A DNA stretch of 64,000 nt from Eledone cirrhosa (lineage: Eukaryota): positions 94,054,001 through 94,118,000 of the forward strand of contig OZ024744.1 in the NCBI GenBank assembly GCA_964016885.1, in the 5' to 3' direction. Both the position numbers and the translations under genes were made by a program. Of this stretch, positions 8,691-64,000 are shown piece after piece (the first letter of the stretch is position 1; each line of letters begins with the position of its first letter). Below the pieces are notes generated by a model. It worked only from the letters and a program-made list of their open reading frames with translations, made no database searches and was not told the DNA's origin.

Positions 8691-9034
8691 ATATATATAT
8701 ATAAATATATATATAAACAATTATATTTATGAAGTTTTGAGCAAATTATGAATTATTTTGAATGTATGTTAGCTTAAAGTAAACTGATTGAACACAGTTT
8801 TTTTTACTCTGGAAAAATAGTCTTTATAAGTTGAGCATAGAAAACCCTAGAGGTGCGAAAAAAGTGAACAGTGCTGCCTGTGAGACTTGAACTCACATCT
8901 GCCATATGCCGAACAGCTTTGCTACCTATTACACTAAAGCAGGCTGATCAAATTTTTCCTTGATTTTAAGCATTATCTAGATGTAAATAAATGGTTGTAT
9001 TTATAAAGCGTTGAGTGAATTATGAATTTTTAAT

Positions 9035-13281: not shown

Positions 13282-16200
13282 CTATATTTGGGTTTTCTCG
13301 CGAGTTGCAAAAGCAAATAGGTTATGTCGGCTCCCCACTCGAGAGCAGCCAACATATAGTTGACCATGGGAGAAGAACGGTTCTTCTAAATTAAGCCCTA
13401 CGACCGTCAGCGTCTGACCCTGTGATTTGTTAATCGACATGGCGAAACTGAGTCGGAGAGGGAATTGCAGCCTTCTGAATGTGAAAGGAATGTTTTTACC
13501 GGATGGAATGAGAGGTATCCTTGGTATGAAGACAGTATCCCCCTTACCACATCCTGTAAGTATTGTTGCCTCAATAACATGAGGCACTGCCTTTTGGACG
13601 ACCAGACGCGTGCTGTTTAAAAGCCTTCGGGGTTCCAAATTCCTGAGGAGCATGACAGGGACACCTTTCTTAAGTCGCAGTAAGTGTGATGGCAATCCGG
13701 GAGGGTCTAGGGAGTTAAGAAATTCTGTGGGGTAATTAACAACTTCGTCTGGATCAGCCATAGAATCAAGGGACTTGTAGACATGCAGGTTTCCAAGCAA
13801 GCACAGCATGAGCTGTTCATTGATGTTTCCAGCTATGTGGTTTTTTGAAGCCAATATTGCGCGTTCACACAACCACTCTTGATTTGTGTAGTTCTCCTCA
13901 AGATTAGGAAAATGAGACGTCCGTAACTCAGCAATTGACTTAATGCATCTACAAATCCCTGTGAGGTCCGCTGCACCATCTCCGTTGAGTGGGACTTTGC
14001 CATCTCCCAACGGCAAAATGGCAGCAGCAAAACCTGCTGATGTTTCATCACCTTGCAGTTGTGCTCTCATGTTTGTTGTAAGTGTCAGCTTTCTTACATA
14101 ACGCCAATGTGGGGATTCCTTAAGGGATTACAGCCAGAGTCTGTCGGAAGTCCCCAGATAACAGGAAAGTGACACCTCCCATTGGTTCTTGACAGTCCCT
14201 GATGCCTCTGAGTGACCGGTCTAATGCCTCGAAAGCCGCCTTGTGGGCCATTGTGCATTTGTCCCAAACAATTAGTAGGCAACGCTTTAACACCAGTGCT
14301 TTTCCAGAAGACTTGCTGATGTTGCACGTGGGTGTCTCAGATGATGCCACGTTGAGAGGAAGACTGAAGGCAGAATGGGCCGTCCTGCCACCAGGCAGCA
14401 AAGTTGCTGCAATGCCGGAAGAAGCCACGGCCAATGCGATGTTTCCATGTTGCCTCACTGCAGCGATTAAAAGTTGATTACAAATGTTTTGCCCGTGCCT
14501 CCAGGTGCCTCCAGGAAGAATATACCCCCCCCCCTCCCCGATTACGGATGGAATCAACAACAATGTTGTAGGCTTGTTTTTGATCCATTAGAAGTTTTGG
14601 TTCATTTTCTTCAACATATCTTTTGAGTTCATCGACATCATATGACGTTTCACGTATAATGTCGCTGGGAATGTCAGATGGCGCATCTCGATGTGCTTGC
14701 GGAAGCCCATATTTCTCCAAGACATCTCCACCCATTGAAGCCACTCTGTCTTCAATATCGATCAGAGCTCTGTTATATATAGCGTCTGAAAAGCCGACAT
14801 CTAAGTTTGGAGATTGCAATTGAGCGAGATGCCTATATTCGTCTGCGAAATTATCTTTAAACTTTTGCCATAAAGAGTAAGGATCGCTCAATTCACAGAC
14901 TTCAAGCAGGCTTCCCTGTACGTTCCGCAGATGTATCCATTGACCGTTCTCAGATGAGTGAAGGTGGTCGGCCCTCTCACCTCATGAAGCAGAAGTCGCA
15001 GGTAGAAGCATTCGTGTTGGGTAGGGTGGACCGTATAAACTCGCCCAAGGCAATAGTCGAATTTGATGCCTGGATATCCAACCACCTCTTGCCCTACCTT
15101 CCATCGTAGCCATTTTGTCTGATTCCATGTATAGTAAGACGGTATTTCAGAATACAGCAGAGTTCGAGCGAAGTTGTCGTGTTGACAAAGATTGAAAAAA
15201 GCAGTGAGTGTAGTTTCCTTTGGTGAGATCGCTAGCTGAGCAGCTGTTGCATCGTTGAAATACACCCGTTGACCGTTTTCAAGGTGAATGGCAAGTTAAT
15301 GACGGGGTGTCGTTGGTGCAGTGGGAAGCCAAAAAGGCTCCAAAAGGCTTCATTGCTGCTAATGTATCGGCCTGCTTGGTAGTCAGATACCTCGTCTCTA
15401 CTGTTTTCATGACGAAGACCAAAGACGGCAGCATCCAATCCCTTGTTTATGTACTTACAAACGTATTTAATTGATTTTACTGAGTTTCATAATTCGACGT
15501 TTATATGGGCGTTGAACGCTTTCAAGAGGAGGGGGCAATATGGCACTATACAGCTGTTGTTGAATTCGCGTTCGCCAACCTTTGCTGTGAACCCACCGTC
15601 TTCAGGTCTCCTGCACCTATACAATGGATATCTGTCACCGCCAGTCTGTGTTTCCTGTAAAAACGGCCTGGGATATCATTTTGTACACTTTCCATCGTGT
15701 ATGCACGGGGACGTCATATTGAGTCCATGTCCGCAAGGACCATGGACCATGTTTGATTGACTATAGAGAAGAGGTCCTGGTCAATCTACGGATCAGGTAG
15801 TTCGGCAGAAATGAATTTGTCGATGTAGTTTGAACTGATTTTTGTAACCAACCAAATCAAGATATGGGCATGCGGCAGCCCTCGTTTCTGCCATTCAACC
15901 GTGTACATGTCGCACCTGACAGGCCTAAAAACCTCTCTTTTCTTTAATAAATCAATTAATTTGGATAATTTCAGGCGAAACACTCATAGTGCTGTCTCAG
16001 TGCTTTAGAATGATATTTGTCTTGTTGTGCTGTTCACCACAAATAACTGCAGCAATCTCATTGCATGTTGGTGTGTTGAACCGACCAGCATGTTCTCCAG
16101 ATGGCCTTCGGTCAGCATGTATGACCACACTAAAGTTTGGGTTGGTAGCTGTTTCCAAAGCGTACTTGAAACTACGAACATAGCTGTTTTTGTCATGAAG

Positions 16201-28438: not shown

Positions 28439-28769
28439 AGGCACATGGCTTAGTGGTTAGAGCATTGGGCTTGCAATCAAAAGGTTGTGAGTTCAATTCT
28501 CAGATCGGGTGATGTGTTGTTTCCTTGAGCAAGACATTTTATTTCACATTGCTCCAGTCTACTCAGCTGTAGAAATGAGATGGGGTCCATATCATTCCAC
28601 TGCAAAGTGGTCATGGAGGTGCCACGGCAAAAAAGCACCCAGCACTCACTGTAAATGAGGTTGGTGTTAGGAAGGGCATCCAGCTGTAGAAATCATGCCA
28701 GAATCAGTTCCTATCCCACCCTTGTAAGCAGGGAAAAGCAGACGTAAAATGAAATGGTGATGATGATGA

Positions 28770-31525: not shown

Positions 31526-31596
31526 TGTTTTATCTGATGAAAACACAAATATTATTGCATGATGATATTTGTTTTTGAAATGCGCATAATAAAATA
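31526..31596 (+). ncRNA. Minimal type I hammerhead ribozyme
   Basis: TGTTTTAT-CTGATGA-stemII-GAAA-TGCGCA-TA-ATAAAATA, with a palindromic stem III. Confidence 0.85.
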
Positions 31597-37370: not shown

Positions 37371-40300
37371 ATCATCATCATCATCATCATCATCATCATT
37401 TTACGTCCGCTCTTCCCTGCTTGCAAGGGTGGGACGGGTCTTATTCAGCACAGCATCTCTCCACTCGTCACGGTCCCTCGTCATCTCCACCGTGAGCTTC
37501 AATGATCTGAGGTCTGTTCTCACCACCTCCGCCCATGTTTTTCGTGGTCTACCTCTACCACGTCTTCCTTCAACTGGCATTTTCTGGCACTTCTTCACCC
37601 ATCGGTCATCCTCCATGCGCATCACATGTCCATACCACCTCAGTCTCCTCTCCCGTACACTACATTCTATCCCTCTCAGACACAGTTTCTCTCTCAACAC
37701 ATTTATGCTGGGTCGTTCACGCACATTTACACTGCACATCCAACGGAGCATGCTTGCCTCATTTCTCTCCAGCCGTCGCATATCTTCTGCGGTAGCTGCC
37801 CATGTCTCACTACCATGCAGCATCGCGCTCCTCACACAGGCATCATACAACCGGCCTTTCGTACGCAGGGAGAAACCCTTCTTCGTCAACAGAGGAAGCA
37901 GCTCCCTAAACTTCTTCCAACCCGTCCTTATTCTAGATACTATGGCCTCGGAACACCCTCCTCCCATGCTAATCTGATCTCCTAGGTACCGGAAGCTATC
38001 CACCACTTCTATAGCGCCCTCTCGCATTTGAAAAATGTGTCTATCAGTGCGACTTCTACTGTCTAATTTCCCTGTACATCTACTGCATACATATTTCTCC
38101 CTACCTGTTAGTTTGCCTGCTATCCCGCTACATCTCTTGTGTACCCAGGACCTACATTGTGTGCATTTTATAGAATTTATGCCAGTTCCTTTTCTGCATA
38201 TCGAACATGGCCATTTCCCTGACGGAATCAGGGTTTTGTCCTCTTTTCTACTCATCAACACTTTTGTCTTAGCTAGATTTACTCTCAGTCCTCTTGCTTC
38301 CAACTGCTGTTTCCATAGCCGGAATTTATTCTCTAGCTCCTCTACTGATTCTGCCATAAGAGCCAGATCGTCAGCATAGAGAAGTTCCCATGGACAGCCA
38401 GTCTTAAACTCCTCTGTTATGGCTTGGAGGACTATAATGAACAAGAGCGGGCTGAGGACCGAACCCTGATGTACTCCTACTTGTATCTGGAATTCCTCAC
38501 TAAACTCCATTCCTACCCTGACTTTACTGAGAGTACCTCTGTACAAAGTTTGCACTGTCCTTACAAACCATTCCTCAACACCCAGCTTCCTTAGGGACCA
38601 CCAGATGACAGATCGGGGTACCCTATCAAAGGCCTTCCATAGGTCAACAAAGGCTAAGTATAGTGGCTTATTCTTCTCTAAGAACCTCTCTTGCATTTGT
38701 CTCACCAAGAAGAGGGCATCTGTTGTACTCTTCCCAGGCACAAAACCAAACTGCATCTCATCTAGTTTGACCCTTTCTCTAATTAGTTGTGCTAAAATCC
38801 TTTCTGCCACTTTCATAACCTGATCTATCAGTTTTATACCCCTATAATTGCTCCTCTCCAAAGCATCCCCTTTACCTTTGTAGCAATTTATGAGAATACT
38901 GCTGCACCAGTCTTTGGGTATGACACCACCATATATAGCCTGATTGATTATGCGTGCAACCAGTTTAGTGCCTACGTCCCCTGATGCCTTCAGCATCTCA
39001 GCAACTATTCCCGATGGTCCGGCCGCCTTACCATTCTTCATTTCCCTAATCGCCTCTTGGACCCTATATTCGTCAATCTCAATAGCTGGTCCCTCTGTCG
39101 GATCTACCAAGGTTAATTTTTCTCTCTCCCATTCGTTCTCCACATTCATCAGTCTCTCATAATGACATTTCCAGGCCTCCTTTTTCTGGTCATTCGTGAC
39201 ACTAAGTACACCGGCATCATCCCGGACACATTTATCACCAACAACATCCTGATTTGCATTGACACACTGCCTTGCAATGTGGAACACCGCACGCCTCTGA
39301 TCTTCCCGTCGCAGAACATTGGCAAACCTCCTACTCTCTGCCTCCCTGCGTGCTAAGTACACCTGGCGTCTAGCTTCTCTCTTAGTGGCTGTATATTCTT
39401 CCCTACTCCCACCCTTATTCCAAGCCTTCCATGCTAGTCTTTTGTCTCTAATAGCCTTATCTACACTGCTGTTCCACCACCAGGTCACTCTCTGTCTGGT
39501 TGGAGCTCTGCTCCAGCCACAGGTTTCATCAGTAGCCTTCAGCAAGTTGTCACGTAAGAACTTCCAGTTATTATCTATGTCATACGTCTCTAAATCGTCT
39601 TCTTTTTCGTCATATACATCTTGAAGGGCTTTCCTAAATTTGAATTTTAGTGAAAGGTCTTTTAGCTTCCAGACCTTTCTTCTCCACACCTTCCTATATG
39701 TCTCATTCCATCTCTTGCTTACTGAGATATCACTAACAACTAACCTATGCTGTGGGGTACATTCTTCCCCAGGGTATGCCTTGGTATTAGACACTATCTG
39801 CCTGTCCCGCTGCCTAACTAGCAGGAAGTCAATCTGGCTTATGTGCTCACCAGATTTGTAGGTTATTAGGTGATTGGCAGGTTTCTGGAAGTTTGTGTTG
39901 CAAATAGTCAATGTACTTGCATCACAAAATTCAAGAAGTCTCACTCCTTCATTTCTTGAACCATAACCGTGCCCACCATGTACCCCAGTGTAACCATCCT
40001 GGAGCTGTCCAACATGACCATTGAAGTCTCCTGCTAGCATAACGATGTCTCCGTCCTCTGTCATTGTGGTTGTTTGCAAGAGTTGCTCATAAAAGCAGTC
40101 TTTCTCATCTTTGCCTAGGCCTGCTTGGGGAGCATAGACCGAGATGATTGTCAGTAGTCTCCTACCTACAACTAATCTAAGCTTAATTATTCGATTACTA
40201 ACTCGAACTACCTCTATTGTCTTATTGATCCATTTCTCAGCCAGGAAAATGCCTACTCTCCCTAACCCATCATCCTTACCTACCCAGAATAGCTTATAGC

Positions 40301-40660
40301 TAAGACGCTTGCCTACAACTAGTCTCGCAGAGGCACCTCTCCATCTCACCTCTTGCACGCAGCACACATCCACCTGCCTTCTCTCCAGCATCTCCGCTAT
40401 TTCAGCAGATCTACCTCTGAGAGTGCCAACATTAAGTGTTGCAACTCTGAGATGCGACGTCTTCATATTTTTCTATGCTGTTTTGTTGCTGTGCTGATAA
40501 GCTTTTTGGCATTGATACACTGGTTGGATGCCCTTCCTAACACCAGCGCCACTTTACAGCATGGACTGGGTGCTTTTATTTGTGCCACCAGCACTAGAGA
40601 GGATGTCTTACTAGACTCAAGGGCCCTCTCTACCCCTCCATTTTACAGCATGGTCATTTA
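37371..40660 (-). mobile_element. Full-length RTE LINE (family A)
   Basis: ~190-bp 5' UTR with GTGTTAGGAAGGGCATCC, a single intact ORF, and a stop directly followed by the (GAT)n tail. Confidence 0.95.
37401..40466 (-). CDS. RTE LINE polyprotein: APE endonuclease, reverse transcriptase, Cys-rich zinc-finger module
   Basis: 1021 aa without stops: TLNVGTL..QEVRW..YAPQ..GDFNGHVG..IDF..QHRLV; QGSVLSPLLF..YADD; CSIC..CTQC..HKRC..CSRC. Confidence 0.95.
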   Translation of the reverse strand: MKTSHLRVATLNVGTLRGRSAEIAEMLERRQVDVCCVQEVRWRGASARLVVGKRLSYKLFWVGKDDGLGRVGIFLAEKWINKTIEVVRVSNRIIKLRLVVGRRLLTIISVYAPQAGLGKDEKDCFYEQLLQTTTMTEDGDIVMLAGDFNGHVGQLQDGYTGVHGGHGYGSRNEGVRLLEFCDASTLTICNTNFQKPANHLITYKSGEHISQIDFLLVRQRDRQIVSNTKAYPGEECTPQHRLVVSDISVSKRWNETYRKVWRRKVWKLKDLSLKFKFRKALQDVYDEKEDDLETYDIDNNWKFLRDNLLKATDETCGWSRAPTRQRVTWWWNSSVDKAIRDKRLAWKAWNKGGSREEYTATKREARRQVYLARREAESRRFANVLRREDQRRAVFHIARQCVNANQDVVGDKCVRDDAGVLSVTNDQKKEAWKCHYERLMNVENEWEREKLTLVDPTEGPAIEIDEYRVQEAIREMKNGKAAGPSGIVAEMLKASGDVGTKLVARIINQAIYGGVIPKDWCSSILINCYKGKGDALERSNYRGIKLIDQVMKVAERILAQLIRERVKLDEMQFGFVPGKSTTDALFLVRQMQERFLEKNKPLYLAFVDLWKAFDRVPRSVIWWSLRKLGVEEWFVRTVQTLYRGTLSKVRVGMEFSEEFQIQVGVHQGSVLSPLLFIIVLQAITEEFKTGCPWELLYADDLALMAESVEELENKFRLWKQQLEARGLRVNLAKTKVLMSRKEDKTLIPSGKWPCSICRKGTGINSIKCTQCRSWVHKRCSGIAGKLTGREKYVCSRCTGKLDSRSRTDRHIFQMREGAIEVVDSFRYLGDQISMGGGCSEAIVSRIRTGWKKFRELLPLLTKKGFSLRTKGRLYDACVRSAMLHGSETWAATAEDMRRLERNEASMLRWMCSVNVRERPSINVLREKLCLRGIECSVRERRLRWYGHVMRMEDDRWVKKCQKMPVEGRRGRGRPRKTWAEVVRTDLRSLKLTVEMTRDRDEWRDAVLNKTRPTLASREERT

Positions 40661-45876: not shown

Positions 45877-48800
45877 CTATAGGCGCATGGTCAGAGTAGG
45901 CCCATTCACACGAGCCATTCTCGCCACATTCACCCACCTTTTAGCAAATGTACTGGGGGGCAGCACTTCTCTCTCCACCCTCACCCTCCTTTCCAGGTGA
46001 AACTTTAAGAAGTTGATGAGGGATTGGCCGAAGAGAAAAGTGTCTGTCTTTAGTCCTTTCAACCTGGTCCACCATATAATCTCTTTCGTAACTGCCACCA
46101 GACAGAGGAATATTTCCTGCCCTTCCTGACCTAAGGAAGGTGGCGGGCTTCACTATGGACTCGGCCGATAGCCGGATTCGTTCCACACGCGACAGTAGCT
46201 GTTCGACATAACTCCACAAGTCAGTAATGCACGGACATTGGACAAGTGCGTGCAGAACGGTTTCGTCGTTCTGTACGCATCTTGGGCAGGTCCGTCTGAC
46301 AGCACTTCCGTGCCTGTAGAGTTTATCCCGAACCGGCAGTGACCCCCCCGGTAACACTGCCAAGCGAGAGATTTCTGGAAATTGTCCATCGTCCCCGGCT
46401 CAAAAGTCCTCCGGTACAGACTGGTCAGTTCGACTTCGTTGAGGCCCAAAGCTTCTCCGAGTGCGTCATCGCACTTGCCCACCACTAATCCTTATAGAAC
46501 TCGAGAGTGGAAGTTCCACTGATCGCATTGCCCGCTTGGTAGAGGGCAGTGAGTGCCTGGCAACATTCCAGGTGCCAGTCACCCAGTCTCGGTCTCTTCT
46601 TGACCCAGGACTGCAGCTCAGTCAAAGAAATGAGCTGCGGAAAGGCCCGTCTGATAAACGGCGACCACACCTGTTCACCATTGAGGCAGAATATCTGGAG
46701 ATGTCGCAGCCTCAACGCATGTCTGCGCATCATTAGCCACGGCATGCCCAGCCCTCCGCGTAGAGGGTGCTGGCAGCAGATGGACCACCTCACCAACGGA
46801 ACTTGTCCCCTCCACAAGAATTTGAAGAGGAGCCGTTCCAACTTGACGAGGCGCGGACGGGGGCAAGGCACGACGGTTAGGCGGTAGTAGATGACGGACG
46901 CGATGTATGCATTCGCCACCTCCGCGCGACCTTTCAGTGATAGCTTTCTCCCAGCCCGTTTTTGGGTGAGACTGGCTACTCTGCTCGTTACCTCGTCCCA
47001 ATTCTTTTCCACCTGGAGGTCTGGTCCGAACCAAACCCCGAGCAACTTTACCGGTCCGTCCGTCCAGCGCCCCACGACGCTGTTGGACAGCATGGGCTTG
47101 CCTCTCCAGGTTCCGAGCTGCAAGCCCACCGACTTTTCCGGGTTAAGTTTGGCTTCTGTCAACCTTTCATATTCCTTCAATAAGGTGCCAACCACCTCGA
47201 TTTCTGAGGTGTTCGACACCATCACGGTGATGTCGTCAGCATAAGTCGACACCGCCTTTCCACGTCCCGGTTCGAGCGGGATGCCCTGCAACAGCTCTAG
47301 CTTCCGCAGGAAAGGCTCGAGAGTCAATACGTACAGAAGGGAAGAGAGAGGGCACCCTTGACGGACCGATCGGGAGAGCCAAAATGGTTCCGAGAGGTGG
47401 CCATTAACCTTGACCACCGAGCGTGTCCCTCTTGTTCTCATCTTTCCTTATCAGCGTCACCACTCCCCTGCTCACAGAACTGGGAATACTCCCATTCTGC
47501 TGCCAGTTGCAGTAGAGTGCTTCGAGGAGTTCGGAGAACAAGTCTGGCATATTTACGTAAAGCTCGTAGGGCAGGCCATCCAAACCGGGTGACTTGCGCC
47601 TCATGCAGCCAACAAGGGTGTCCTGAATTTCGGCTGAAGTAATCGGCCTTTCGCAGCGCTCAGCGTCGACCGTCGAGATGCGCGGCAAGCCGTCAAGGTA
47701 GGGACTGAAATCCGCTACTCTCTCTGACTCGCCACTCTCCCTGAACAACCGAGCAAAGTGCTGGCGAAAGGCCTCACACATCCGCTTGGAATCGCTTATC
47801 TCGTGTCCGTCTCGGTCCGCCAAAGACCGAATTGTGGTTTTATTACCACGCTGCGCCTCCACCACGCAGGCCCATCGAACAGCTTTAGTTCCCTCGTTTC
47901 TCAGCGCACGCGCCTTAGCTCTGACAATGCAACCTTCGTGTTTGGCATTGAAGAAATGGTCTAATGCCATTCTCGCCGCTAGCACATCAGTTGCGATGCC
48001 ACTACAAATAGCCTCGTCTAACTTATCTACCAGCTCCCCCTCCTTTCTATTTTTCTCTAATGCTAGTTCTTTGCTGAACTCTATCGAAGTTACTCTAATC
48101 TCTCTTTTGAGAGCCCCTCACCATCTGTTGTTCATGAACCCCCCTGTCAACTTTTGCTTAACTAACTTGTTGACTCGGTCCCTGTAAGCCTTACGTGCCG
48201 GAAATGACATGTTCAGCTTCCAGTAACCCAGTCCTAACCTACGCGTTTTATTTAGGTCGACCGTACAGATCACAAATTTGTGATCTGAATAGGCGACCGT
48301 TTTAAAAAGTGGACAGCCCACACTATTTCTATCTATTTTCCTAATGAAGATCCTGTCTATATACAATCTAGATGACCCCATCCGGTTGGTCCATGTCCAT
48401 ACTGGCACATTGGGGAAATCTAGTCGATACCTGTCAGACAGTTGGAACTGGCTGAGTAGGTGCTTGAGGCTTTTGCACCCCCCGCTCCTATCGGCTACTC
48501 CCACACAATCCCAGCGTGCGTCTAAGATGCCATTCCAGTCCCCCGCTAACAGTAAAGAGCGAGACGTACCCAGAAAGGTCTCCAGGCGCCTAAAGAAGTC
48601 AGGTCGTCCGGCCCCTCTAGGGGCGTAGATGGCCAGCAGTCTAAAGGCACCACCTTCGCTACTGCTCACATCCAAGACCACCAACTTACCGTCCGGGTCC
48701 CGGAAGATCGACCTTACCTCGAGATCCAGTCCTTTCCTAAACAGCACTGCCACCCCACCCCCCATACCCAGCCTGCTAACAGATGTGAAGATCTGATAGT

Positions 48801-48960
48801 CGTCGAAAATGGGGGCTAGTGCGCGCGTGTCGGAAATTCTGGTCTCACTGACGGCAATCACATCCATTTCTAGCGACCGGAGGTCGTTGAGCAGGCGACC
48901 CTGCTTCCAGGGTGACCCCAGGCTGCGAACATTTAAACTTCCTACTCTTAATATGGCCAT
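45877..48960 (-). pseudogene. Tx1 ORF2 (APE endonuclease, RT, C-terminal CCHC), disrupted
   Basis: SLNVRSL..SET..YAP..GDWN..IDR..SDH; KSPGLDGL; RQGCPLS..YADD; CPRC..ET..H..C. Nonsense codon at 48118, internal deletion near 47430 and further frameshifts. Confidence 0.9.
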
Positions 48961-48969
48961 ATTGGTAAG

Positions 48970-50814
48970 CTAAGAGAGAGAGAGGGAAGGTTTACTTACC
49001 TCTCGAGTCTTGTGAAGGTCGGGTGGTTCGACCTCCATGGTTGGTGGGGTTTCTTTTGGGAACCCCTTTAAAAGTCTTGATGTGGGTTTCACATTCGGAG
49101 TTCCCACGTCTTGAGGAAAGCTCTCTCGAATTTCTTTGAAGGAATTGAGTGACATTCGGGCCAGAAGCAAATCTTCTGGCACGCAAAATGTGCTCACTTC
49201 AAAAATCTCCCCCTCTGTTTGAATGTCCTCGCTTCGCGCTAAGAGGGCCATCAGTTTATCGTTGGCCCTTCTGACAAGCACGAAGTTTTTAACATTTTGT
49301 TGGTGTGGTTTTATTTGTTTTTGTTTTGGTGAAGGTGGTGGCGATGGTTTTGGTGGTGTTGTTTCGGGTATGTCTATGTTTGTTGTAGGTGTGGTGTCTG
49401 CAATTTCAGGTATTTGTGTGTTTATTTGTACTTGTGTTTGTTTAGGTTGTTTGCGTTTCAGGGATTGTGGGGGTGGTGTCGATGTTGCTGTTGGTGCTGA
49501 TGTTATTGGGGAAGTGTTTGCGTTAGTGGTGTCTGTATTTTTTGTTGTGTGTGTTTTTGTGTTTTGTTGGGGCTTTTTTTTTGTGAGTTTTCTCTGTTTT
49601 TTTGCACTTTTGGGTTTTCCTTCATCTTCGCTGCTGGAAGACAAAGGGTCTGTAGCTGTGAGTGTCTCTGTGTCTGTGTGTGCGTTTATTGTTTTTGTTG
49701 ATGTTGATTTTGGTGGTGGTGGTGCAGCTTTCCGTGCTGACACTGGCGTTGGCAACAAAGGAGGTTTGCGACCCCCTGCATTTTTGCGCTGAGGGCAGAA
49801 GACTTGCAGATGCGTTGCTTCCCCGCAGACAAAGCAGTGTGGCCTTCTTCCGTCAATCATTAGTTGGATTGTTGTCCCATCCTGCAGGCGGGCAAAATCC
49901 GGGATGTTATTCATATCTTCCGGTTTCATTTGGAGAAGAATCTCCAAATCCATTCCGGACCAGTCCTCTCTCTCTGTCCTTTTGATGTCTAGGAGGGCAG
50001 TGTCTGTCCCCTCCTCGATTACGCATCCCAGCAGCCACCATATGTTCATTCCTAGTGGGATGTTGGGAATGCGTACTTTCGCTGTCCTTTTACCCATATA
50101 GGATGGATGCATGATAATGCGTTCCGTTCTGCAGGGGGTCACCGAGTGCTTAATAGCGAGGGCCTCGGTTTTGAACAGTACCGAGATGGTACCGAACTGT
50201 TTGCCTCTTGCTTTGTACTCTATGTTACTTCCGATGTACTCCAAAGCAGCCTCTAGCTCTGCTTGGCTCGCAAGTTCCACTTTTCGTATCTGCACCGAAA
50301 TACATCGAAAGAGCACCATCCTCCTTTGCATGGCCGCTATTGCCTCATCCGGGATGGTCAGGTTTGCCCAGGACTTCTCCCGTTTAATTAGCCTCCACGC
50401 TTTGGCCAACTGTTCGTCTTTATCGCTAATATCAATATCAATATTCAATAAGCGCTTTGTTTTTGCTGCTGCTGCAGCAAATGTGGTGTTTCTGATGCTC
50501 TTATTGTTGTTGTTGTCATTCTTGCTGTTGCCACCGCCATCCTTGTTTACATTGAAGCTCTCGGTGTTATTGTCGTTATTGCTCTGAGTTGTTGTTGTGG
50601 TGGTGGTGGTGGCGGTGGTGGTGATGTTGTTTTCAGATGATACTGATGCTATCACAGAAGGTTGTGATGATAGCTTTTGTGTTTTGCCTTCACATTCAGT
50701 AGAGTGGATGACAGGCATGACTGTAGCCGTCATAGTCGTGGTGAAATCTACAGTGGCTGCCTTTAAACTTTTGACCTGAACGTTGTTTACCATTTCAAGG
50801 TCGAAAATTTCCAT
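48970..50814 (-). CDS. Tx1 ORF1 nucleic-acid-binding protein with CCHC zinc knuckle
   Basis: 614-aa open frame with CFVCGEATHLQVFC and low-complexity T/P/K regions. Confidence 0.85.
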   Translation of the reverse strand: MEIFDLEMVNNVQVKSLKAATVDFTTTMTATVMPVIHSTECEGKTQKLSSQPSVIASVSSENNITTTATTTTTTTTQSNNDNNTESFNVNKDGGGNSKNDNNNNKSIRNTTFAAAAAKTKRLLNIDIDISDKDEQLAKAWRLIKREKSWANLTIPDEAIAAMQRRMVLFRCISVQIRKVELASQAELEAALEYIGSNIEYKARGKQFGTISVLFKTEALAIKHSVTPCRTERIIMHPSYMGKRTAKVRIPNIPLGMNIWWLLGCVIEEGTDTALLDIKRTEREDWSGMDLEILLQMKPEDMNNIPDFARLQDGTTIQLMIDGRRPHCFVCGEATHLQVFCPQRKNAGGRKPPLLPTPVSARKAAPPPPKSTSTKTINAHTDTETLTATDPLSSSSEDEGKPKSAKKQRKLTKKKPQQNTKTHTTKNTDTTNANTSPITSAPTATSTPPPQSLKRKQPKQTQVQINTQIPEIADTTPTTNIDIPETTPPKPSPPPSPKQKQIKPHQQNVKNFVLVRRANDKLMALLARSEDIQTEGEIFEVSTFCVPEDLLLARMSLNSFKEIRESFPQDVGTPNVKPTSRLLKGFPKETPPTMEVEPPDLHKTREVSKPSLSLS

Positions 50815-51091
50815 AATTTTCTTTTGGTAGGGAAGCGATTTTTTTCGAAAGTTTTAAAAATAAATCTGAATATTCGGGCTTAAAGCCCGAATATTGAGAG
50901 GTATCCCTCTCTTTAAATCAAGATGTGTACCTTAAGTTTCGTTAACGACAAGAAAATACAAAAAAAGACACTTTAAAACAACTTAAAGTTACGAACCTTT
51001 TCCCCCGCAGATTTGTACTGTCTTCACACATAATAATAATAATAATAATAAATGACCAAATGCATGTGGTAAGCAAATGCACAAAAAAAAC

Positions 51092-51631: not shown

Positions 51632-51687
51632 ACTGCCTGATGAGGTCATAGCCATTCAATGGCTATCATCGAAATATATATAGCAGT
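51632..51687 (+). ncRNA. Type I hammerhead ribozyme upstream of the PLE ORF
   Basis: ACTGC-CTGATGA-..ATAGCCATTCAATGGCTAT..-GAAA-TATATA-TA-GCAGT. Confidence 0.8.
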
Positions 51688-51728
51688 AAATAAAGGATTA
51701 TGAGTTCATGCAATTGACTTATGTTTCG

Positions 51729-51821
<93 letters not shown>

Positions 51822-51947
51822 AATATATTAAAAAAATTATTTTCAATTTTATGTATATATATATATATATATACATAACTATAAATAGTATCTTTAATAT
51901 TATTAACTGCTCCATACTGTTGAGTTAACATACATTAAATTACCAGT

Positions 51948-54405
51948 ATGCTGATCAAAGACTACCTTCCTATGTCTACTAAGAACATACCAATACCATC
52001 TAAAGATACATATGAAAAATTATTGATCAATAGTGTCAACTCGTTTATCAATAGAGTGAGATGGAGGACATTCCATTATGATAAAAACAGATCTAACAAA
52101 ACCAATGATACTAACAAATTTGACTCTTTCGGCTTTAAAACTTTCAGAAGTCCTCCTCACAACACATTATTAAACTCTTTTGAAAATGACCTAATAAAAC
52201 TAGTTAAGAACATTAAATACAAAAAGCATCGTAATAGAAACAACACCTTCTTAAACAAACTTAACTCCTCTATTAAAGGATTCAATACAAATAATAAAAT
52301 TATAGTACATGCAGATAAAACTAATAATATATATAGCCTAGATTATGATACATATAGAAAATTTATATATAAAGAACTACATAGGAGCTATAGGAAAACT
52401 ACTATTAAAAACCTACAAGATATTAATTTGGAAGGCCGTAGTATAGTGTGTAAATTGGGACTTCAGAGACATACACAGCCATACACCCCTAACCCCCCAA
52501 GATTCTCGCTGAAGGACTATAAGGAAGATTTCATTAGTAACCCTTCGATAAGACTAATCTGCCCTTCCAAATCTGACATTGGTATTATCAGTAAGAAAAT
52601 ATTAGATAGAATCATCCCACAGATTAAGCACAAAATATATCTTAACCAGTGGGGAAATACAGGTGAAGTGATTGAATGGTTCAAGGGTATTAAAGAGAAC
52701 AAAAATAAATAAATAAAAATTTATACAGTTTGATATCAATTCATACTACACCTCTATTTCCCCTATCCTATTAAATAAGGCACTAATTATGGCCATGAAC
52801 AATAGTGACCTGACTAGATCCCAGATTGACATCATACTTGCGGCCCGAAAAACCATAATTACATTTGAAGATCAATTATGGACCCGCAAGGATACGCACA
52901 ACAACTTTGACATAACTATGGGATCTAGTGACTCAGCGCAGGTCACCGGTTTGGTGGGCCTATATCTACTAAATGAAATCCATAAAGACCTACCCTACCT
53001 CAACGGTGGTTTATACCGCGATGATGCACTACTCCTTATAGACTATACAAAATTTAATATAGAAAAAACTAGGAAACTATTACATAAAATTTTCAAAAAC
53101 TTCAACTTAAGTATCACCATAGATAAAAACACTAAAAATGTTAACTTCCTTGATGCTACCCTTTACCTAGACTCTAAAATATATACACCCTTTCATAAAC
53201 CAAACGAAAAACTACTTTATGTAGATACCAATTCTAACCACCCTAAATCCATATTAAACTCAATCACTAAAGGAATATCTAATAGAATCTCTAATCTATC
53301 TTATAACGAAACCATAATTAACAATAATTCACAATACTATAATCAGGCATTAGTTAAATCAGGCCATAATAATGGGATTGAATTCCTATCTATGAAATCA
53401 CATAGTTACAACATTATTTCTCACAATATGGCCATGAGGAAATATAATAATAAAAATAATAGCTCTAATACGAAGGGTAGTATCAAACTTAACTTGCACC
53501 AAAATAGACACCAAAATAATATTATAAACAGAAATACCTCAATAGATATTATAAAAAACAAAAATAGAAGAACTAATACATTTTTCAATCCCCCTTTCAA
53601 TCTAAACGTCTCTACCAACTTACTTAAGGTTTTCTTCTCAATCCTAGAAAAAGATTTCCCATCTGGCCACAAATACCATAATCTTATAAATAAAAATACC
53701 ATTAAAATCTCTTACTCTACCACACCTAACATAGCATACCATATAGCTAGTAGTAATAAAAGAAAGATTAATACTTATTATCAACAAATTAAAACACAGC
53801 AGGAGGTAAACTTTCAGAACAACAAAATAACTACAAATCCTAATAGCAATAGTAATAATAGTAATAACACTAATGAAATCAATAACATTAGGAACAACAA
53901 CCAACATAGCCCTAATACTAACCCTAGCAACCAGACTTCTACACAACATAATAACCGGCAAGATAACATCCAAAATAAATGCAACTGTAGATCAAATAGA
54001 ACTTGCCCTTTAGGTAACAACTGCTTAATCAAAGACATCACTTACTCCTGCACGGTCAACACTAACGACTCTTCTAAAACATATATAGGCTCTACTTCGA
54101 ACTGCTTCAAGACGAGATACAACTCGCACCTCCACTTTTTCAAAAAACACAATCTAGCCAACTCCACTTCACTATCTAGCTACATACACTATCTAAAAAC
54201 TAGGAATAGAACATATACACTTCAATGGGAAGTAGTAGGTAGGGCTGCATCGTATAAACCACCTAATAAATTTTGTAACCTCTGTCTCCTAGAGACCCAT
54301 ACTATCTTTTCGAATCTTAACCTCCTAAATAAAAAATCGGAAGTGTTTGCATCATGCCAGTACCGCTTCCGACACTCAATCCATAGCTTTAAACCTAGTA
54401 TATAA
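51948..54405 (+). pseudogene. PLE RT/GIY-YIG ORF broken by a single indel in an (AAAT)n run at ~52700-52720
   Basis: KNIPIP..RVRW, ADKT, KDYK, GLYRDD, CNCRSNRTCP (CxCx5C), TYSC..YIGSTS..KTRYNSH, FCNLC. Confidence 0.9.
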
Positions 54406-55898: not shown

Positions 55899-55952
55899 TA
55901 ATGCTCTGAGGACTCCAAGCCTAAGTTTGGAAGAAGCAATTGTCAGCGATTA
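55899..55952 (+). ncRNA. Hammerhead ribozyme variant (GAAG in place of GAAA)
   Basis: TAATGCT-CTGAGGA-CTCCAAGC..GTTTGGAA-GAAG-CAATT-GTC-AGCGATTA. Confidence 0.6.
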
Positions 55953-56019: not shown

Positions 56020-56287
56020 TATACATATATATATATATATATACATACATATACACATATATATATACATATATATATACATAAAAATAAAGGGAAGGAA
56101 GCGGTATTCAAATAGTAGGGCACACGACAAATAAAAAATATAAAGGTATAAATGTTTATAGCTGATTAAGAGCACTCAACAGTCCTGGTGCAAATAATCA
56201 ATAAAAGTAAGCATTAAAAAACTGTGTATGTAATTATGCATATACATACAAAACCATACACACACACACTCACAACCAACTACATAC

Positions 56288-56318
<31 letters not shown>

Positions 56319-56484
56319 TATAGAAATTGGAATAAATGCTCTGAAATAGCGATATATATGTGAATATAGACATAGAATATTCGAAAATATTCTGTATGTT
56401 TATAATAAACATTTTGAAGACCTAATCGCTATAGAATAGAATACGTCACGTATTACAATTAGATTCTCGATAAAAGCAAGGGAA

Positions 56485-56527
56485 GTAATCTACGCGTTTC
56501 ATTCTCGTTAGAAATCATCAGGACTAC
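56485..56527 (-). ncRNA. Minimal type I hammerhead (also 56795-56837, 57105-57147, 57415-57457)
   Basis: Reverse complement reads GTAGTC-CTGATGA-TTTCTAACGAGAAT-GAAA-CGCG-TA-GATTAC. Confidence 0.85.
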
Positions 56528-57796
56528 ATATCCAGTGCTTTTATCGAGAATGACACAGCTAGAGACTTATAGAATACTTAGCTGTGTACAGGAACTGGTT
56601 TGAAAGAGCGGTTGCCGGTCCGGCAGAAATTAGAAATTGGAATAAATGCTCTGAAATAGCGATATATATGTGAATATAGACATAGAATATTCGAAAATAT
56701 TCTGTATGTTTATAATAAACATTTTGAAGACCTAATCGCTATAGAATAGAATACGTCACGTATTACAATTAGATTCTCGATAAAAGCAAGGGAAGTAATC
56801 TACGCGTTTCATTCTCGTTAGAAATCATCAGGACTACATATCCAGTGCTTTTATCGAGAATGACACAGCTAGAGACTTATAGAATACTTAGCTGTGTACA
56901 GGAACTGGTTTGAAAGAGCGGTTGCCGGTCCGGCAGAAATTAGAAATTGGAATAAATGCTCTGAAATAGCGATATATATGTGAATATAGACATAGAATAT
57001 TCGAAAATATTCTGTATGTTTATAATAAACATTTTGAAGACCTAATCGCTATAGAATAGAATACGTCACGTATTACAATTAGATTCTCGATAAAAGCAAG
57101 GGAAGTAATCTACGCGTTTCATTCTCGTTAGAAATCATCAGGACTACATATCCAGTGCTTTTATCGAGAATGACACAGCTAGAGACTTATAGAATACTTA
57201 GCTGTGTACAGGAACTGGTTTGAAAGAGCGGTTGCCGGTCCGGCAGAAATTAGAAATTGGAATAAATGCTCTGAAATAGCGATATATATGTGAATATAGA
57301 CATAGAATATTCGAAAATATTCTGTATGTTTATAATAAACATTTTGAAGACCTAATCGCTATAGAATAGAATACGTCACGTATTACAATTAGATTCTCGA
57401 TAAAAGCAAGGGAAGTAATCTACGCGTTTCATTCTCGTTAGAAATCATCAGGACTACATATCCAGTGCTTTTATCGAGAATGACACAGCTAGAGACTTAT
57501 AGAATACTTAGCTGTGTACAGGAACTGGTTTGAAAGAGCGGTTGCCGGTCCGGCAGAAATTAGAAATTGGAATAAATGCTCTGAAATAGCGATATATATG
57601 TGAATATAGACATAGAATATTCGAAAATATTCTGTATGTTTATAATAAACATTTATATATATCGCTATTTCAGAGCATTTATTCCAATTTCTAATTTCTG
57701 CCGGACCGGCAACCGCTCTTTCAAACCAGTTCCTGTACACAGCTAAGTATTCTATAAGTCTCTAGCTGTGTCATTCTCGATAAAAGCACTGGATAT

Positions 57797-57839
57797 GTAG
57801 TCCTGATGATTTCTAACGAGAATGAAACGCGTAGATTAC
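57797..57839 (+). ncRNA. Minimal type I hammerhead (also 58107-58149, 58417-58459, 58727-58769)
   Basis: GTAGTC-CTGATGA-TTTCT-AACG-AGAAT-GAAA-CGCG-TA-GATTAC, nested inside a 16-bp outer stem. Confidence 0.88.
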
Positions 57840-58889
57840 TTCCCTTGCTTTTATCGAGAATCTAATTGTAATACGTGACGTATTCTATTCTATAGCGATT
57901 AGGTCTTCAAAATGTTTATTATAAACATACAGAATATTTTCGAATATTCTATGTCTATATTCACATATATATCGCTATTTCAGAGCATTTATTCCAATTT
58001 CTAATTTCTGCCGGACCGGCAACCGCTCTTTCAAACCAGTTCCTGTACACAGCTAAGTATTCTATAAGTCTCTAGCTGTGTCATTCTCGATAAAAGCACT
58101 GGATATGTAGTCCTGATGATTTCTAACGAGAATGAAACGCGTAGATTACTTCCCTTGCTTTTATCGAGAATCTAATTGTAATACGTGACGTATTCTATTC
58201 TATAGCGATTAGGTCTTCAAAATGTTTATTATAAACATACAGAATATTTTCGAATATTCTATGTCTATATTCACATATATATCGCTATTTCAGAGCATTT
58301 ATTCCAATTTCTAATTTCTGCCGGACCGGCAACCGCTCTTTCAAACCAGTTCCTGTACACAGCTAAGTATTCTATAAGTCTCTAGCTGTGTCATTCTCGA
58401 TAAAAGCACTGGATATGTAGTCCTGATGATTTCTAACGAGAATGAAACGCGTAGATTACTTCCCTTGCTTTTATCGAGAATCTAATTGTAATACGTGACG
58501 TATTCTATTCTATAGCGATTAGGTCTTCAAAATGTTTATTATAAACATACAGAATATTTTCGAATATTCTATGTCTATATTCACATATATATCGCTATTT
58601 CAGAGCATTTATTCCAATTTCTAATTTCTGCCGGACCGGCAACCGCTCTTTCAAACCAGTTCCTGTACACAGCTAAGTATTCTATAAGTCTCTAGCTGTG
58701 TCATTCTCGATAAAAGCACTGGATATGTAGTCCTGATGATTTCTAACGAGAATGAAACGCGTAGATTACTTCCCTTGCTTTTATCGAGAATCTAATTGTA
58801 ATACGTGACGTATTCTATTCTATAGCGATTAGGTCTTCAAAATGTTTATTATAAACATACAGAATATTTTCGAATATTCTATGTCTATA

Positions 58890-58957
<68 letters not shown>

Positions 58958-58967
58958 CATATATATA

Positions 58968-60705
58968 ATTTAAATACAACGTCAAACGTAACTTTGTCGA
59001 ATGTTCATAACACCAATCTAAATCAGGAAACTATAGTTCCTATTGTAAATAACTTCTCCAATCCAATTCCTTCTACAAATAATACTAGGTCACTTGTTAA
59101 TAACTCTGGTAATTTCTTTAATCGTAATTGTAATTGCCCTGTTAGACCTAAATGTCCTCTTAATAACCAATGTCTTGATAAAAATTTAGTGTATGAATGT
59201 AAGGTTATAACTGGTACTAATTCTTTTACCTATTTTGGTTCCACTTCCACTTCCTTTAAAGCAAGATTTATAATCACAATTCGTCTTTTAAATACCAACT
59301 TAAAAGAACTAACACGGCACTCTCTGAACTCATATGGTCCTTAAAAGACAAAAATATTAACTACAACATCTCTTGGAGGAAGGTTTGCAACGCCTTTCCT
59401 TACCGGAATTCTTCCCTATCCATATAATCTCTGCCTAGCCGAAAAATTTACCATATTCTCTAATTTTAATTCTATAATAAATAGACGTACGGATTTATTT
59501 TCGCTCTGCTTGCATAAATCCCATAGAACTTTCCATGCAGCTAATATCTCAATACCTAATTAGTTTAAAATCTTCTTTTCTCAAACGCTTTTGTATCTTT
59601 TACAAATATACCCATCTTTCTACCTTATTTCAATATATTATATTATACAATTTACTCATTCTATGTCCTTAGCGGTCCCCTATCTTTCTTCTTTTTTATC
59701 CTTTTTCTTTTTTAATTTCTAATCTTTAATCTGTAACCTTTACTTCTCAATTGCTTCTTAATTCATATTATTACTCACTATAGCATTTTCATTTTTCCTT
59801 ATATTCTTAACCATACAAACTATATTTGTAATATATACTAATATTACCATTAGTAAATTTTGTAAACATATATATTTTTTGACGTTATATTTTTTCTTCC
59901 TTAAATTTTCTTCTTTCTTCTCTCCTTCCGTGCTCGTATTAAACCTATTATTTACTTTTACATATTACAATACATAAAAACAAACTTAAACCCTAACTAA
60001 TTCCTCTAAGTTCATAATTCATTTAATCTCTCCTTCATTCACCTTATATCCTTAATATTAATATTTTAATAATACATATTAATAAATTTTTTTTTCGCAC
60101 ATATTATTAAACCATTCAATTTATAAACCTTAAATAAATACTATTCTTAATTCCTTTTTCTTTAATCATAAACATCACCATTCATAAACCTCATTAACTT
60201 TTAATTTCAAAATCATTTTTAAATTATCTATTATCTTACAACGTTTTTTTATTATTTCTCTCTGTGAGACAGTGTCTCTCAGTATTAAAGGCTATCTCTC
60301 TCTCTCTCACTCATTTCTCCTCCTCTCTCATCCTTCCTTCTTATACTCTCCCCCGTCATCCTTTATTTTCTTTCTTCCTCACCCCCCCCCCCCCCCCCCC
60401 ACCCCCCACCCCCCTTTCCCAATCTCATATATCCATCTTACTTTATTTTTCATATGTAGATTTAACACTTCACTGCTCGCAAGTGTTTTTTAAGCTTCAT
60501 ATCATGTCTCCCTATTTTATCTGATGAGAACGCAAATATCATCCCATGATGATATTTGTTTTTGAAATGCGCATAATAAAATACATGGAACTCTTTTAAC
60601 CATCTTTTGATCTTATATTATTTATACTCCAGTCCTATAAACTGTTGAGTGCTACTTATTCGATATTTGCATTGCTTTATTGTGCTACAATAAAACTCAC
60701 CTCCT
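58968..60705 (+). mobile_element. 5'-truncated Hydra-type PLE (linker, GIY-YIG and pLTR), related to 29963-31723
   Basis: CNCPVRPKCPLNNQC..VYEC..YFGSTST; the 3' end is homologous to ~31430-31723. Confidence 0.85.
60513..60583 (+). ncRNA. Minimal type I hammerhead ribozyme
   Basis: TATTTTAT-CTGATGA-stemII-GAAA-TGCGCA-TA-ATAAAATA. Confidence 0.85.
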
Positions 60706-61529: not shown

Positions 61530-64000
61530 ATCTAACTTCAAAAAACGAGACAAATCACTTGATCACCTATAGATCAGGGGAACACGCCAGTCAGATAGAT
61601 TATATCCTTACCAGAAGACGTGATAGAGTGTCTGTTGTAAACACTAAATCCCTCCCCCATGAAGAATGCACCTCCCAACATAGACTCATAGTCAGCGACC
61701 TCATAGTCAGGACAAGACATATTCGACAATAGAGGAGGACTATCATCAGGAGAAAAATATGGAAGCTAAAGGACCCCACAGCCAGTAATAAATTTAAAAG
61801 CATATTACTTGATGCTTTCGACAGTAAGGAAGAGCAATTAGAGTCGTACAATATAGAGGAACAGTGGGAATTCCTGAAAGCTAACCTGCTGAAGGCGGCA
61901 GATGAAATTTGTGGCTGGAGCAGGCCTATAGGCAGGAGGAGAGTAACATGGTGGTGGAATAGTAAGGTGGAGGAGTCAATTAAGGCCAAAAAGCAGGCTT
62001 GCAAAGTATGGCGGGATGGGGGAAGTAGAGAAGACTATCAAGTGGCCAGGAGGGAAGCTAGGAGACAAGTGTACTTCGCAAGAAGGGAAGCAGAGGAAAG
62101 AAAGTTCAAGCATGTTCTACAATGCGAGGACCAAAAACGTGAGGTGTTAAGGATTGCTAGGAAATGTGGAAAGGAAAACCATGATATTGTCGGGGAGAAG
62201 TGTGTCCTTAATGATGATGGTGTACTTGCCATCACTGACGCTGATAAGAAGGTAGCTTGGAAGTGTCAATACGAAAGGCTACTAAATGAGGAGAATAAAT
62301 GGGAGAAAGACAGTCTCCCCTACATCGATCCAATAGAGGGACCAGCAGTGCGAGTTGAAGGTAGTAAGGCAATCAAAGTTATGAAGACGGGTAAGGCGAC
62401 CGGGCCTTCGGAAATAGTTGCTGAAATGCTGAAAGCATCTGGAACGGTGGGACACACTATGGTCACCCGGATAGTAAACCAAGTCATACAGAATGGGGCT
62501 GTTCCGAAGGACTGGCGTAGCAGCATCATCATTAACTGCTACAAGGGTAAAGGAGATGCTCTTGATAGGGGTAACTATAGAGGCATTAAATTAATCGACC
62601 AGGTCATGATGGTCACAGAAAAAGTAATAGCGCAACTAATCAGAGAACGAATTGATCTAGATGAAATGCAGTTCTGGTTTGTGTCAGGTAAAAGTACCAC
62701 AGACGCTCTTTTCATTGTACGACAACTACAAGAGAAGTACCTAGCTAAAAGTAAACCCTTATACTTAGCTTTTGTTGACTTGGAGAAAGCCTTTGACAGA
62801 GTCCCCCGCTCCATTATCTGGTGGGCGTTTAGAAAACTAGGTGTTGATGAATGGCTTGTGAGAGCTATACAAGCCATGTATAAAGAAACAGTCAGCAAGG
62901 TTAGAATTAACAAGGAATATAGTGAAGAGTTTAGTGTAAAAGTTGGTGTTCATCAGGGCTCCGTTCTTAGCCCCATACTATTTATTATTGCCCTTCAGGC
63001 TATAACAGAGGAGTTCAAGACCGGCTGCCCATGGGAACTCCTATATGCAGATGATCTAACGCTCATAGCTGAATCAATGGCTGAACTAGAGAAGAAATTC
63101 CAAACATGGAAGCATGGCCTAGAATCAAAAGGCCTTAAAGTTAACTTGTCTAAGACTAAAGTTCTAGTTTGTAGGAAGGAAAATAGGGCACCGATCCCAT
63201 CTGGGAAATGGCCATGCTCAGTGTGTAGGAAAGAAGTAGGCAGAAACTCCATTTTATGTCCCAAATGCAAAGTATGGGTGCATAAAAGATGTAGTGGGAT
63301 CACAGGTAAGCTAACTAAGAATATAGATTTTATATGTGGCCGGTGCTCTGGTGCAATAAGTAGCAGCAAGTGCCCACAGAATACTAGCTCATTCCATTGC
63401 ACAGATGATACTATAGAAATAGTGGACATCTTCTGTTACCTGGGTGACAAAATCAGCAGTGGGGGAGGGTGCTCTGAAAGTACAGTAGCTAGAGTCAGAA
63501 CGGGATGGAAAATGTTCAGAGAGCTTATACCACTATTGGCCGCTAAAGGGTTCTCTCTAAAAATGAAAGGCAGGCTGTATGATGCCTGCATACGAACAGC
63601 AATGTTACATGGCAGTGAGACCTGGGCATTGTGTGCAGAGGATATACGCAGACTGGAGAGAAATGAAGCGTGCATGCTCCGCTGGATGTGTAATAGTAAT
63701 ATACGTGAACGGCAAAGCATAAACGAACTAAGGGAGAAATTAGGATGTTGGGATCAGATGTTGTTTGCTCGAGAGACGACTACGTTGGTACGGTCACGTG
63801 ATGCGCATGAAAGACGACAGCTGTATAAAAAGGTGCAGGGCGATAAAAATAGACGGTAGCCACGGAGTAGGCAGACCCTGAAAAACCTGGGACGACTTGA
63901 TAAATTCCGACCACACACACTTACACCTCTCCAAGACAATGTCACTGGACCGAGATCGTTGGCGCCACAGTCATACAGAAGACCCGCCTTGCCTAAGTAC
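61530..64000 (+). mobile_element. RTE LINE family B, 5'-truncated, running off the right edge
   Basis: ORF 61967..63859 with RT motifs and Cys-rich module; upstream APE remnant with stops; homologous to 9352-11490. Confidence 0.92.

Follow-up and report, generated by a model that had tools for sequence, protein, structure and literature searches.

Animal retrozymes without long terminal repeats (LTRs), known as non-LTR retrozymes, are tandem repeats of 150-450 bp with a GC content under 50% and one type I hammerhead ribozyme per unit (PMC7229834), and both rolling-circle copying and a Penelope-like element (PLE) as helper have already been proposed for them (PMC7229834, PMC7761336). PLEs encode reverse transcriptases (RTs) that are sisters of telomerase RT (PMC8557442), and in their insertions a 5'-truncated copy in inverted orientation is common, as is a tail of 30-40 bp, often at one end only (PMC8557442, PMC3846280). 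An anole PLE nicks both strands of AT-rich DNA and extends each of them; it initiates at two sites within the RNA, one on either side of the tail, with no strand difference in start sites in vitro (PMC11167929). Here we analyze a palindrome of tandem 310-bp units in the octopus Eledone cirrhosa, located in a window of 64,000 nt (the whole stretch examined: positions 94,054,001 to 94,118,000 of contig OZ024744.1, assembly GCA_964016885.1). Our best reading is that the palindrome is a single insertion of an animal non-LTR retrozyme, a hammerhead retroelement that is non-coding, young and present in many copies; it carries the footprint of PLE insertion.

The arms of the palindrome were defined by a period-310 analysis of the window letters, cross-checked with Tandem Repeats Finder (TRF). 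In window coordinates, which are used throughout, its parts are:

56288-56320, left target remnant, an A-run plus (TA)n
56321-57654, minus strand, left arm, a perfect period-310 run of 1,334 bp with 4.30 identical units; its outer (tailed) end is at unit position 39 and its inner end at unit position 256
56321-56360, minus strand, 40-nt tail, an unpaired overhang at the left end only, spanning the stretch between two inferred RT start sites
57600-57654, 55-nt spacer of the inverted repeat
57655-58893, plus strand, right arm, a perfect period-310 run of 1,239 bp with 4.0 identical units; its inner end is at unit position 1 and its outer (short, untailed) end at unit position 309
58894-58967, right target remnant, (TA)n

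TRF concurred, reporting 310 x 4.3 at 100% on the left and 310 x 4.0 at 99% on the right. Positions 56361-57599 are the exact reverse complement of 57655-58893, a perfect inverted repeat of 1,239 bp, and the arms meet head to head between 57654 and 57655 with neither insert nor microhomology, the ribozyme-sense strands of both being directed outward from the palindrome center. No open reading frame (ORF) of at least 120 aa in the window's ORF list lies entirely within the array. The original prediction, made from the sequence of the window, had described identical, non-coding 310-bp units in tandem between two (TA)n tracts, the first ~4.3 on the minus strand and the last 4 on the plus strand, and all of this is confirmed; the ~1.2 kb of perfect double-stranded RNA (dsRNA) that it foresaw holds as DNA geometry.

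Copy numbers were counted as exact pattern matches genome-wide. A 31-mer conserved in the unit gave 18,696 matches, which agrees with the predicted retrozyme family and shows that the array is not a one-off, and one ribozyme haplotype gave 4,225; the unit family occupies at least 5.8 Mb of the 3.0-Gb genome. Ends joined to TA numbered at least 1,201 (tailed) and at least 735 (short), which are lower bounds because only some end variants were queried. The analyzed sample has ~10 units per palindrome, so that 18,696 matches would correspond to roughly 2,000 insertions. At least 1,200, and likely about 2,000, young insertions of the unit are present.

We analyzed 133 arrays, consisting of the window's own and 132 from contig C1, most of them selected by end pattern. 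The arms were head to head in 119 arrays and tail to tail in none; the remaining 14 were single-arm arrays, two of which run off the fetched stretch and one of which abuts an N gap. In two samples not chosen by ends, 9/10 and 12/13 arrays were head to head. In 117 of the 118 palindromes with both ends seen, the two outer ends lay 30-40 nt apart on the unit, the short one at unit position ~306-8 and the tailed one beyond it; the tailed ends fell at unit position 32-41 (73/117 at 34). This end rule held in 76 of 77 palindromes that had not been selected on both ends, and its sole exception stops at unit position 25, a shortened tail. Inner ends were scattered round the unit, with 5/234 within 5 nt of the ribozyme cut. 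Most junctions (90/117) had no insert, and over 86 insert-free joins (overlap <10 nt) the microhomology averaged 2.0 nt, compared with 0.76 for random joins. The median arm length was 3-5 units, with arms of up to 23 or more. The short-ended arm was longer by more than one unit in 37 of 117 arrays and the tailed arm in 50; because either arm can exceed the other to this extent, neither is a fold-back copy of the other. The outer ends lie within (TA)n, which masks any target-site duplication, and all ten arrays chosen by ribozyme pattern alone were flanked on both sides by TA-rich repeats, one of them having (TACA)n on one side. Four loci (L042, L051, L061 and L065) are complex insertions with a repeated inversion junction, internal deletions and, at one junction, a 272-nt foreign insert, which suggests template jumps or repair capture.

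These arrays resemble the insertions of endonuclease-bearing (EN+) PLEs in the head-to-head inverted copy (119/133), the tail at one end (117/118), the (TA)n targets, the microhomology joins and the hammerhead near the end. They differ in containing no ORF and in having arms built from tandem copies of one 310-nt unit; moreover, no autonomous family with a matching pseudo-LTR (pLTR) was found among the families examined. The end rule also holds for the autonomous PLEs of this genome. For a family with a 1,218-aa frame (20 loci) it held in every one of the 15 palindromes that showed both outer ends, and for an 832-aa Hydra family in 2 of 2 (17/17 combined). The end rule, the geometry and the (TA)n flanks support the PLE-type mobilization that had been predicted, and PLE-type twin priming very probably made these insertions. 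In L1 twin priming, both target strands prime reverse transcription, yielding a 5' inversion joined by microhomology, and the internal site at which the second primer engages the linear RNA varies. In contrast to L1, both starts are fixed here and each arm exceeds one template length.

Eight hammerhead cores, four per strand, were found in the window array, one in each of its eight complete unit copies. They and the adjoining RNA structures are predicted at these positions:

57797-57839, plus strand, minimal type I hammerhead, predicted cut after 57833
58107-58149, 58417-58459 and 58727-58769, plus strand, further hammerhead copies
57415-57457, 57105-57147, 56795-56837 and 56485-56527, minus strand, hammerheads of the left arm
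57773-57861, plus strand, long extension of stem I, 16-18 bp, with compensatory changes in related families
57929-57948, plus strand, hairpin directly upstream of the short-end start site, with compensatory changes kept in related families

The layout is a 6-bp stem I, CUGAUGA, a 4-bp stem II on a U.U base, GAAA, a stem III formed by a palindromic CGCG (2 bp), and UA. At the level of the motif, this agrees in all eight copies with the intact minimal type I hammerhead and palindromic CGCG originally predicted for every unit, and we obtained the same cleavage position. Rfam returned no hammerhead match, either at its gathering score or with E relaxed to 10, and so the ribozyme call rests on the core motif, the stems and covariation. 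A 32-nt ribozyme pattern had 4,225 exact matches in the genome and its reversed control had 0, which indicates that the motif is not due to chance. The extended stem I hairpin is more stable than its shuffles (z = -5.85; 0/200 shuffles equally good). In the arrays analyzed, array-fixed changes spared all 12 core nucleotides of the ribozyme, and those inside the ribozyme lay at N7 or in loop 2, converted U.U to A-U, or preserved stem I pairs. Across 22 aligned related units, 18/32 pairs changed on both sides, a score that 0/500 shuffles reached, although kinship among the units inflates this test; controls with a slid structure scored far lower. To judge by these alignments, selection acts on the RNA structure of the unit. 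The longest invariant stretch across related families is a 12-mer within the tail, which is present in the tail of the window's palindrome, and we infer that this 12-mer and the hairpin at 57929-57948 are candidate RT-recognition elements. The hammerhead is present in one polarity of the unit only, its appearance on both strands being due to the DNA inversion; hammerhead viroids differ in having ribozymes in both polarities of the monomer, and the description "viroid-like" was therefore overstated.

Like animal non-LTR retrozymes (PMC7229834; bioRxiv 10.64898/2026.07.22.740005), which are ~300-bp non-coding tandem units of low GC in thousands of copies, each with a single type I hammerhead, and which lack LTR features and have had a PLE proposed as helper, the present family has non-coding units of 310 bp and 34.5% GC, a hammerhead in 8/8 units, at least 1,201 dispersed ends and no LTRs. 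It departs from the 2020 description in its ribozyme: the canonical-size hammerhead with contacts between loop 1 and loop 2 is replaced by a minimal, PLE-like form, and minimal hammerheads are also admitted for retrozymes in bioRxiv 2026.07.22.740005. RNA expression and circles have been demonstrated for those retrozymes, whereas for the present family both are predicted. A further difference is that their units are described as head to tail, whereas ~90% of the arrays here are head to head with a fixed tail rule; the word "inverted" is absent from the main text of PMC7229834, and inverted arms or tails are not described in the accessible part of bioRxiv 2026.07.22.740005. Non-autonomous Chlamys PLEs such as MRC1 (PMC8557442) are algal, and they resemble their autonomous partners at the 3' end; most Chlamys elements lack hammerheads. 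No such partner was found for the 310-bp unit among the families examined. On these comparisons, the family would work like a non-autonomous PLE and, apart from the form of its ribozyme, conforms to an animal non-LTR retrozyme in each respect that sequence can address. Because rolling-circle copying and a PLE helper had been proposed before, and inversion and tail are known for PLEs, the component parts are not new. [quoted passage not shown]

Variation within and between arrays bears on the template. Among 121 arrays of at least three units there were 38 haplotypes, 28 of them seen once; 167/196 array-fixed substitutions were present in both arms, and a deletion known from a single array occupies 22/22 of its units. 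Array-fixed variants did not support a signature of adenosine-to-inosine editing (A>G 9 versus T>C 7; singletons 12 versus 24; p = 0.14). The pattern fits arrays that each arose in a single event from one monomer, for which a covalent circle is the simplest form. We consider that the family is probably a genomic parasite, inserted by a borrowed PLE enzyme with a circular 310-nt monomer RNA as the main template. An array would be transcribed, the transcript cleaved by its hammerheads, probably as dimers formed through the CGCG palindrome, and the monomer closed by a host ligase. A PLE protein, perhaps a dimer, would then bind near the conserved hairpin and tail and nick both (TA)n target strands; one 3'-OH would start at the short site and the other at the tail site, each running variable turns of the circle. 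Microhomology or a short templated fill would link the 3' ends of the two complementary DNAs (cDNAs), second strands would be made, and some long arrays would later expand locally. The still more specific proposition, that a PLE RT/EN pair loads on one ribozyme-made circle and uses a separate fixed site for each of the two nicked strands, the sites lying ~35 nt from each other, and that ~2,000 such events are recorded in the genome, has in our judgment an even chance of being correct.

Several observations weigh against a ribozyme-made circle moved by a PLE. The ribozyme is minimal, with U.U at the base of stem II and a 2-bp stem III; its 47-nt motif alone folds like shuffles (z -0.3); and 8/9 Xenopus retrozymes failed to cleave in vitro (bioRxiv 2026.07.22.740005). 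For the anole PLE in vitro, ribozyme cleavage is dispensable and unprocessed RNA is the main substrate (PMC11167929). The structure used for covariation was derived from the same 22-unit alignment, which favors it, and the arrays other than the window's come from contig C1 and are mostly end-selected. No autonomous PLE with a matching end was found in a partial survey that covered the copies in the window, the 830/832-aa Hydra families and their relatives, and the 1,218-aa family. Finally, some arrays are not homogeneous: a variant is confined to the outermost unit of both arms in L079 and L089, L072 mixes two haplotypes, and these three patterns are not explained by a single monomer circle, while L048, L065, L095 and L096 have higher-order patterns that reflect later local expansion.

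Much of this would be accommodated if the same PLE twin priming copied an RNA of more than one unit, either the linear transcript of a donor array, multimeric and left uncleaved, or a circle of several units, with the ribozyme mattering only occasionally. Internal initiation would make each unit of such an RNA a start point, unprocessed RNA was the main substrate of the anole enzyme (PMC11167929), the ribozyme is minimal and weak, and the mirrored outermost-unit variants of L079 and L089 and the mixture in L072 also favor this reading. Yet a linear multimer could yield only daughters shorter than their donors, whereas arms reach 23 or more units; the 38 homogeneous haplotypes among 121 arrays would need frequent single-unit bottlenecks; and the ribozyme core is under purifying selection. 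We therefore regard a multimeric template as a doubtful, if serious, explanation.

The RT might instead re-copy a linear cleaved monomer by repeated end-to-end jumps, in the manner of telomerase and with no covalent circle. The kinship of PLE RTs with telomerase RT (PMC8557442) suits such a scheme, which also accounts for clonality, and short templated inserts at some junctions show that jumps happen. The ribozyme cut, where the jumps would occur, bears no mark of them: 0/16 sporadic indels over about 660 units fall there and the inner ends are not enriched at it, so that the trace which a nicked or jumped linear monomer might leave is absent. We consider this scheme improbable.

It is quite improbable that PLE-type insertions of one or two units grew later by slippage or unequal exchange and were homogenized by conversion, as has been proposed for retrozyme arrays (bioRxiv 2026.07.22.740005). 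Such growth is visible in the higher-order patterns of the four long arrays named above, and yet 139/156 segregating substitutions within arrays are singletons, against 60 expected under gradual growth, an excess that counts for the circle but that assembly errors could inflate. In addition, variant density is unrelated to array length (rho -0.09, n = 48), no internal variant occurs in 16 of the 48 arrays that reach 1.5 kb, and both inverted arms would need to have expanded independently.

A single priming event, after which synthesis switches strands or folds back on the newly made cDNA in a manner akin to the self-priming in PMC3846280, has in its favor the short microhomologies and inserts at junctions and a few near-symmetric junctions (L058, L092). 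An arm made in this way cannot outgrow the arm that templates it, which conflicts with the excess of more than one unit seen in either direction (37 and 50 of 117 arrays), and both outer ends lie at fixed sites; the fold-back route is highly improbable, unless arrays expand after insertion far more often than the variant spectrum permits. The same evidence divides the original proposal of rolling-circle copying from a circular RNA with a strand switch mid-copy: a monomer (circle) template is probable from the sequence patterns, whereas the switch is unsupported, since the palindrome is the normal insertion form (119/133), with outer ends at two fixed sites and arms of independent length, to which two target-primed runs are the better fit.

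An assembly or long-read fold-back artefact, which the perfect identity of the arms and the lack of any listed piece of an outside run spanning the window's own palindrome center might suggest, is of almost negligible probability, because the flanks are unrelated and not mirrored, the ends differ by a fixed rule, the junctions differ per locus, and contigs of public run X5, possibly the assembly's own sample, contain 14 minus-to-plus joints, none of them the window's own, at varied unit positions with a depth of 3-27. In all, 20 public runs (X1-X20; 18 coded organism labels, 17 studies) contain 0.65-1.00 of the unit words, a near-identical sequence whose spread may reflect relatives, contamination or transfer, and there is no RNA run among those listed as containing them. 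Run X1 has a 340-nt contig that matches without differences and exceeds the unit by 30 nt, a form to be expected of any perfect tandem as well as of a circle. X1 and X5 also cover flanking host repeats, and these two runs thus give no sign of horizontal transfer. The unit had no match in viral or metagenome contigs.

The array lies between two Hydra-type PLEs, as had been noted in the original prediction, and both are remnants:

51637-54405, plus strand, left Hydra-clade PLE with DKT and CxCX5C motifs, and its own hammerhead at 51637; the PLE is also placed at 51939-54405
58968-60620, plus strand, right Hydra-type PLE, 5'-truncated, consisting of the endonuclease end only, with a different hammerhead at 60521

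The suggestion that these neighbors are the helpers is not supported. The ORF of the left element is split by a stop and a frame change near 52710, the right one retains only its endonuclease end, sequence comparison in the window found neither similar to the 310-bp unit, and a match to either of two tested PLE proteins occurs at only 18/70 array loci. Both are independent insertions, which adjoin the array because of shared (TA)n targeting. The left flank at 56084-56290 looks like a further Hydra-type PLE, of which it would be the 3' end on the minus strand; this region is a nest of TA-targeting insertions, and a decayed hammerhead at 55907-55950 closes the left Hydra PLE. Hammerheads of a family with a long stem II and a palindromic UGCGCA stem III stand at PLE ends at 30058 (minus) and at 31534, 37237 and 60521 (plus).

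A wider search for a helper gave the same result. Apart from further retrozyme copies, blastn with the unit as query found nothing in the window, in 30 PLE loci taken with 1.5-kb flanks, in 20 loci of 10 kb with Hydra-type elements or in 20 with members of the 1,218-aa family. Relatives outside arrays were also sought with four exclusion patterns; these yielded 110 loci, which we read as array variants or older sister families, none of them beside an ORF. The possibility that the unit is only the pLTR of an autonomous PLE elsewhere in the genome is not supported: the arrays examined consist of unit sequence up to (TA)n, an inner junction, a gap or the locus edge, and in them the unit is not contiguous with an RT-EN ORF. 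The start-site region compared with the 1,218-aa PLE family was no better than shuffles (127/500). Pfam gave no informative match for any PLE protein, and a PDB sequence search with the 832-aa PLE protein gave none.

Autonomous PLEs of several kinds are present in the genome. L232 (G000:C28:57246500-57256400) represents a very young autonomous family with a 1,218-aa frame, an N-rich insert and a C-terminal endonuclease; 150 scored copies of this family match the 177-aa endonuclease query at 98-100%, and its tail is 45-60 nt. L152-L162 and L170 are young, intact Hydra-type PLEs (830 and 832 aa), often as head-to-head ORF pairs, and these families have an unusually long tail of about 160 nt.

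Older sister families of the 310-bp unit have units of about 315-322 bp, mostly occur as one or two units, are often palindromic and have the same layout; in three full-length alignments they are 67-69% identical over the unit. Sister retrozyme families that share the tail region and hairpins and are palindromic in (TA)n occur at L063:1-470, L098:8100-8660, L102-L121, L236:9019-9333 and L252-L281. Many of their hammerhead cores have a U3-A8 pair in place of C3-G8, in the usual hammerhead numbering. A different family of palindromic hammerhead elements that insert at TA (L160:6837-7205 and 8660-8770, L121:310-480, L234:8100-8560) has a core and stem II that nearly match those of the 310-bp unit and a tail of about 70 nt, and no ORF was seen in it. 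A frequent element with the same architecture and short tandem copies (L161:950, L163:1611 and 7772, L037, L040) has a minimal hammerhead with a U.U-based stem II and a palindromic CUAG stem III. At G000:C14:25.02-25.32 Mb (L211-L229), a decayed unit copy has been amplified at least 19 times within a larger repeat cluster. Elsewhere in the window there are RT and endonuclease frames of the long interspersed element type at 9352-10485, 37401-40472, 46485-50853 and 61733-63859, two of them with a PHD finger, a Pif1 helicase fragment at 13282-14127, and two weak tRNA-like matches (8872-8943 and 28446-28503) that are probably the heads of short interspersed elements.

For retrozymes, the identity of the mover and the role of the circle as template have so far been argued only from co-occurrence and pLTR similarity in the accessible accounts (PMC7229834, PMC7761336, bioRxiv 2026.07.22.740005). 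Here the insertions themselves bear the PLE footprint, and they are numerous enough for statistics. They yield a prediction for the PLE insertion pathway, namely that the two target strands use different start sites within one insertion, and the 310-nt template with its mapped start sites could serve as a minimal PLE cargo. If the model is correct, a single mechanism would account for the circle of retrozymes as well as for the tail and the inversion of PLEs, and a circular-RNA lineage would have kept its structure over a long divergence with no evident sequence-matched helper. Each landing would write a kilobase-scale perfect inverted repeat and so seed a potential long-dsRNA locus, and these recent perfect inverted repeats, which total at least 5.8 Mb, may affect dsRNA silencing, editing and genome stability in the host.

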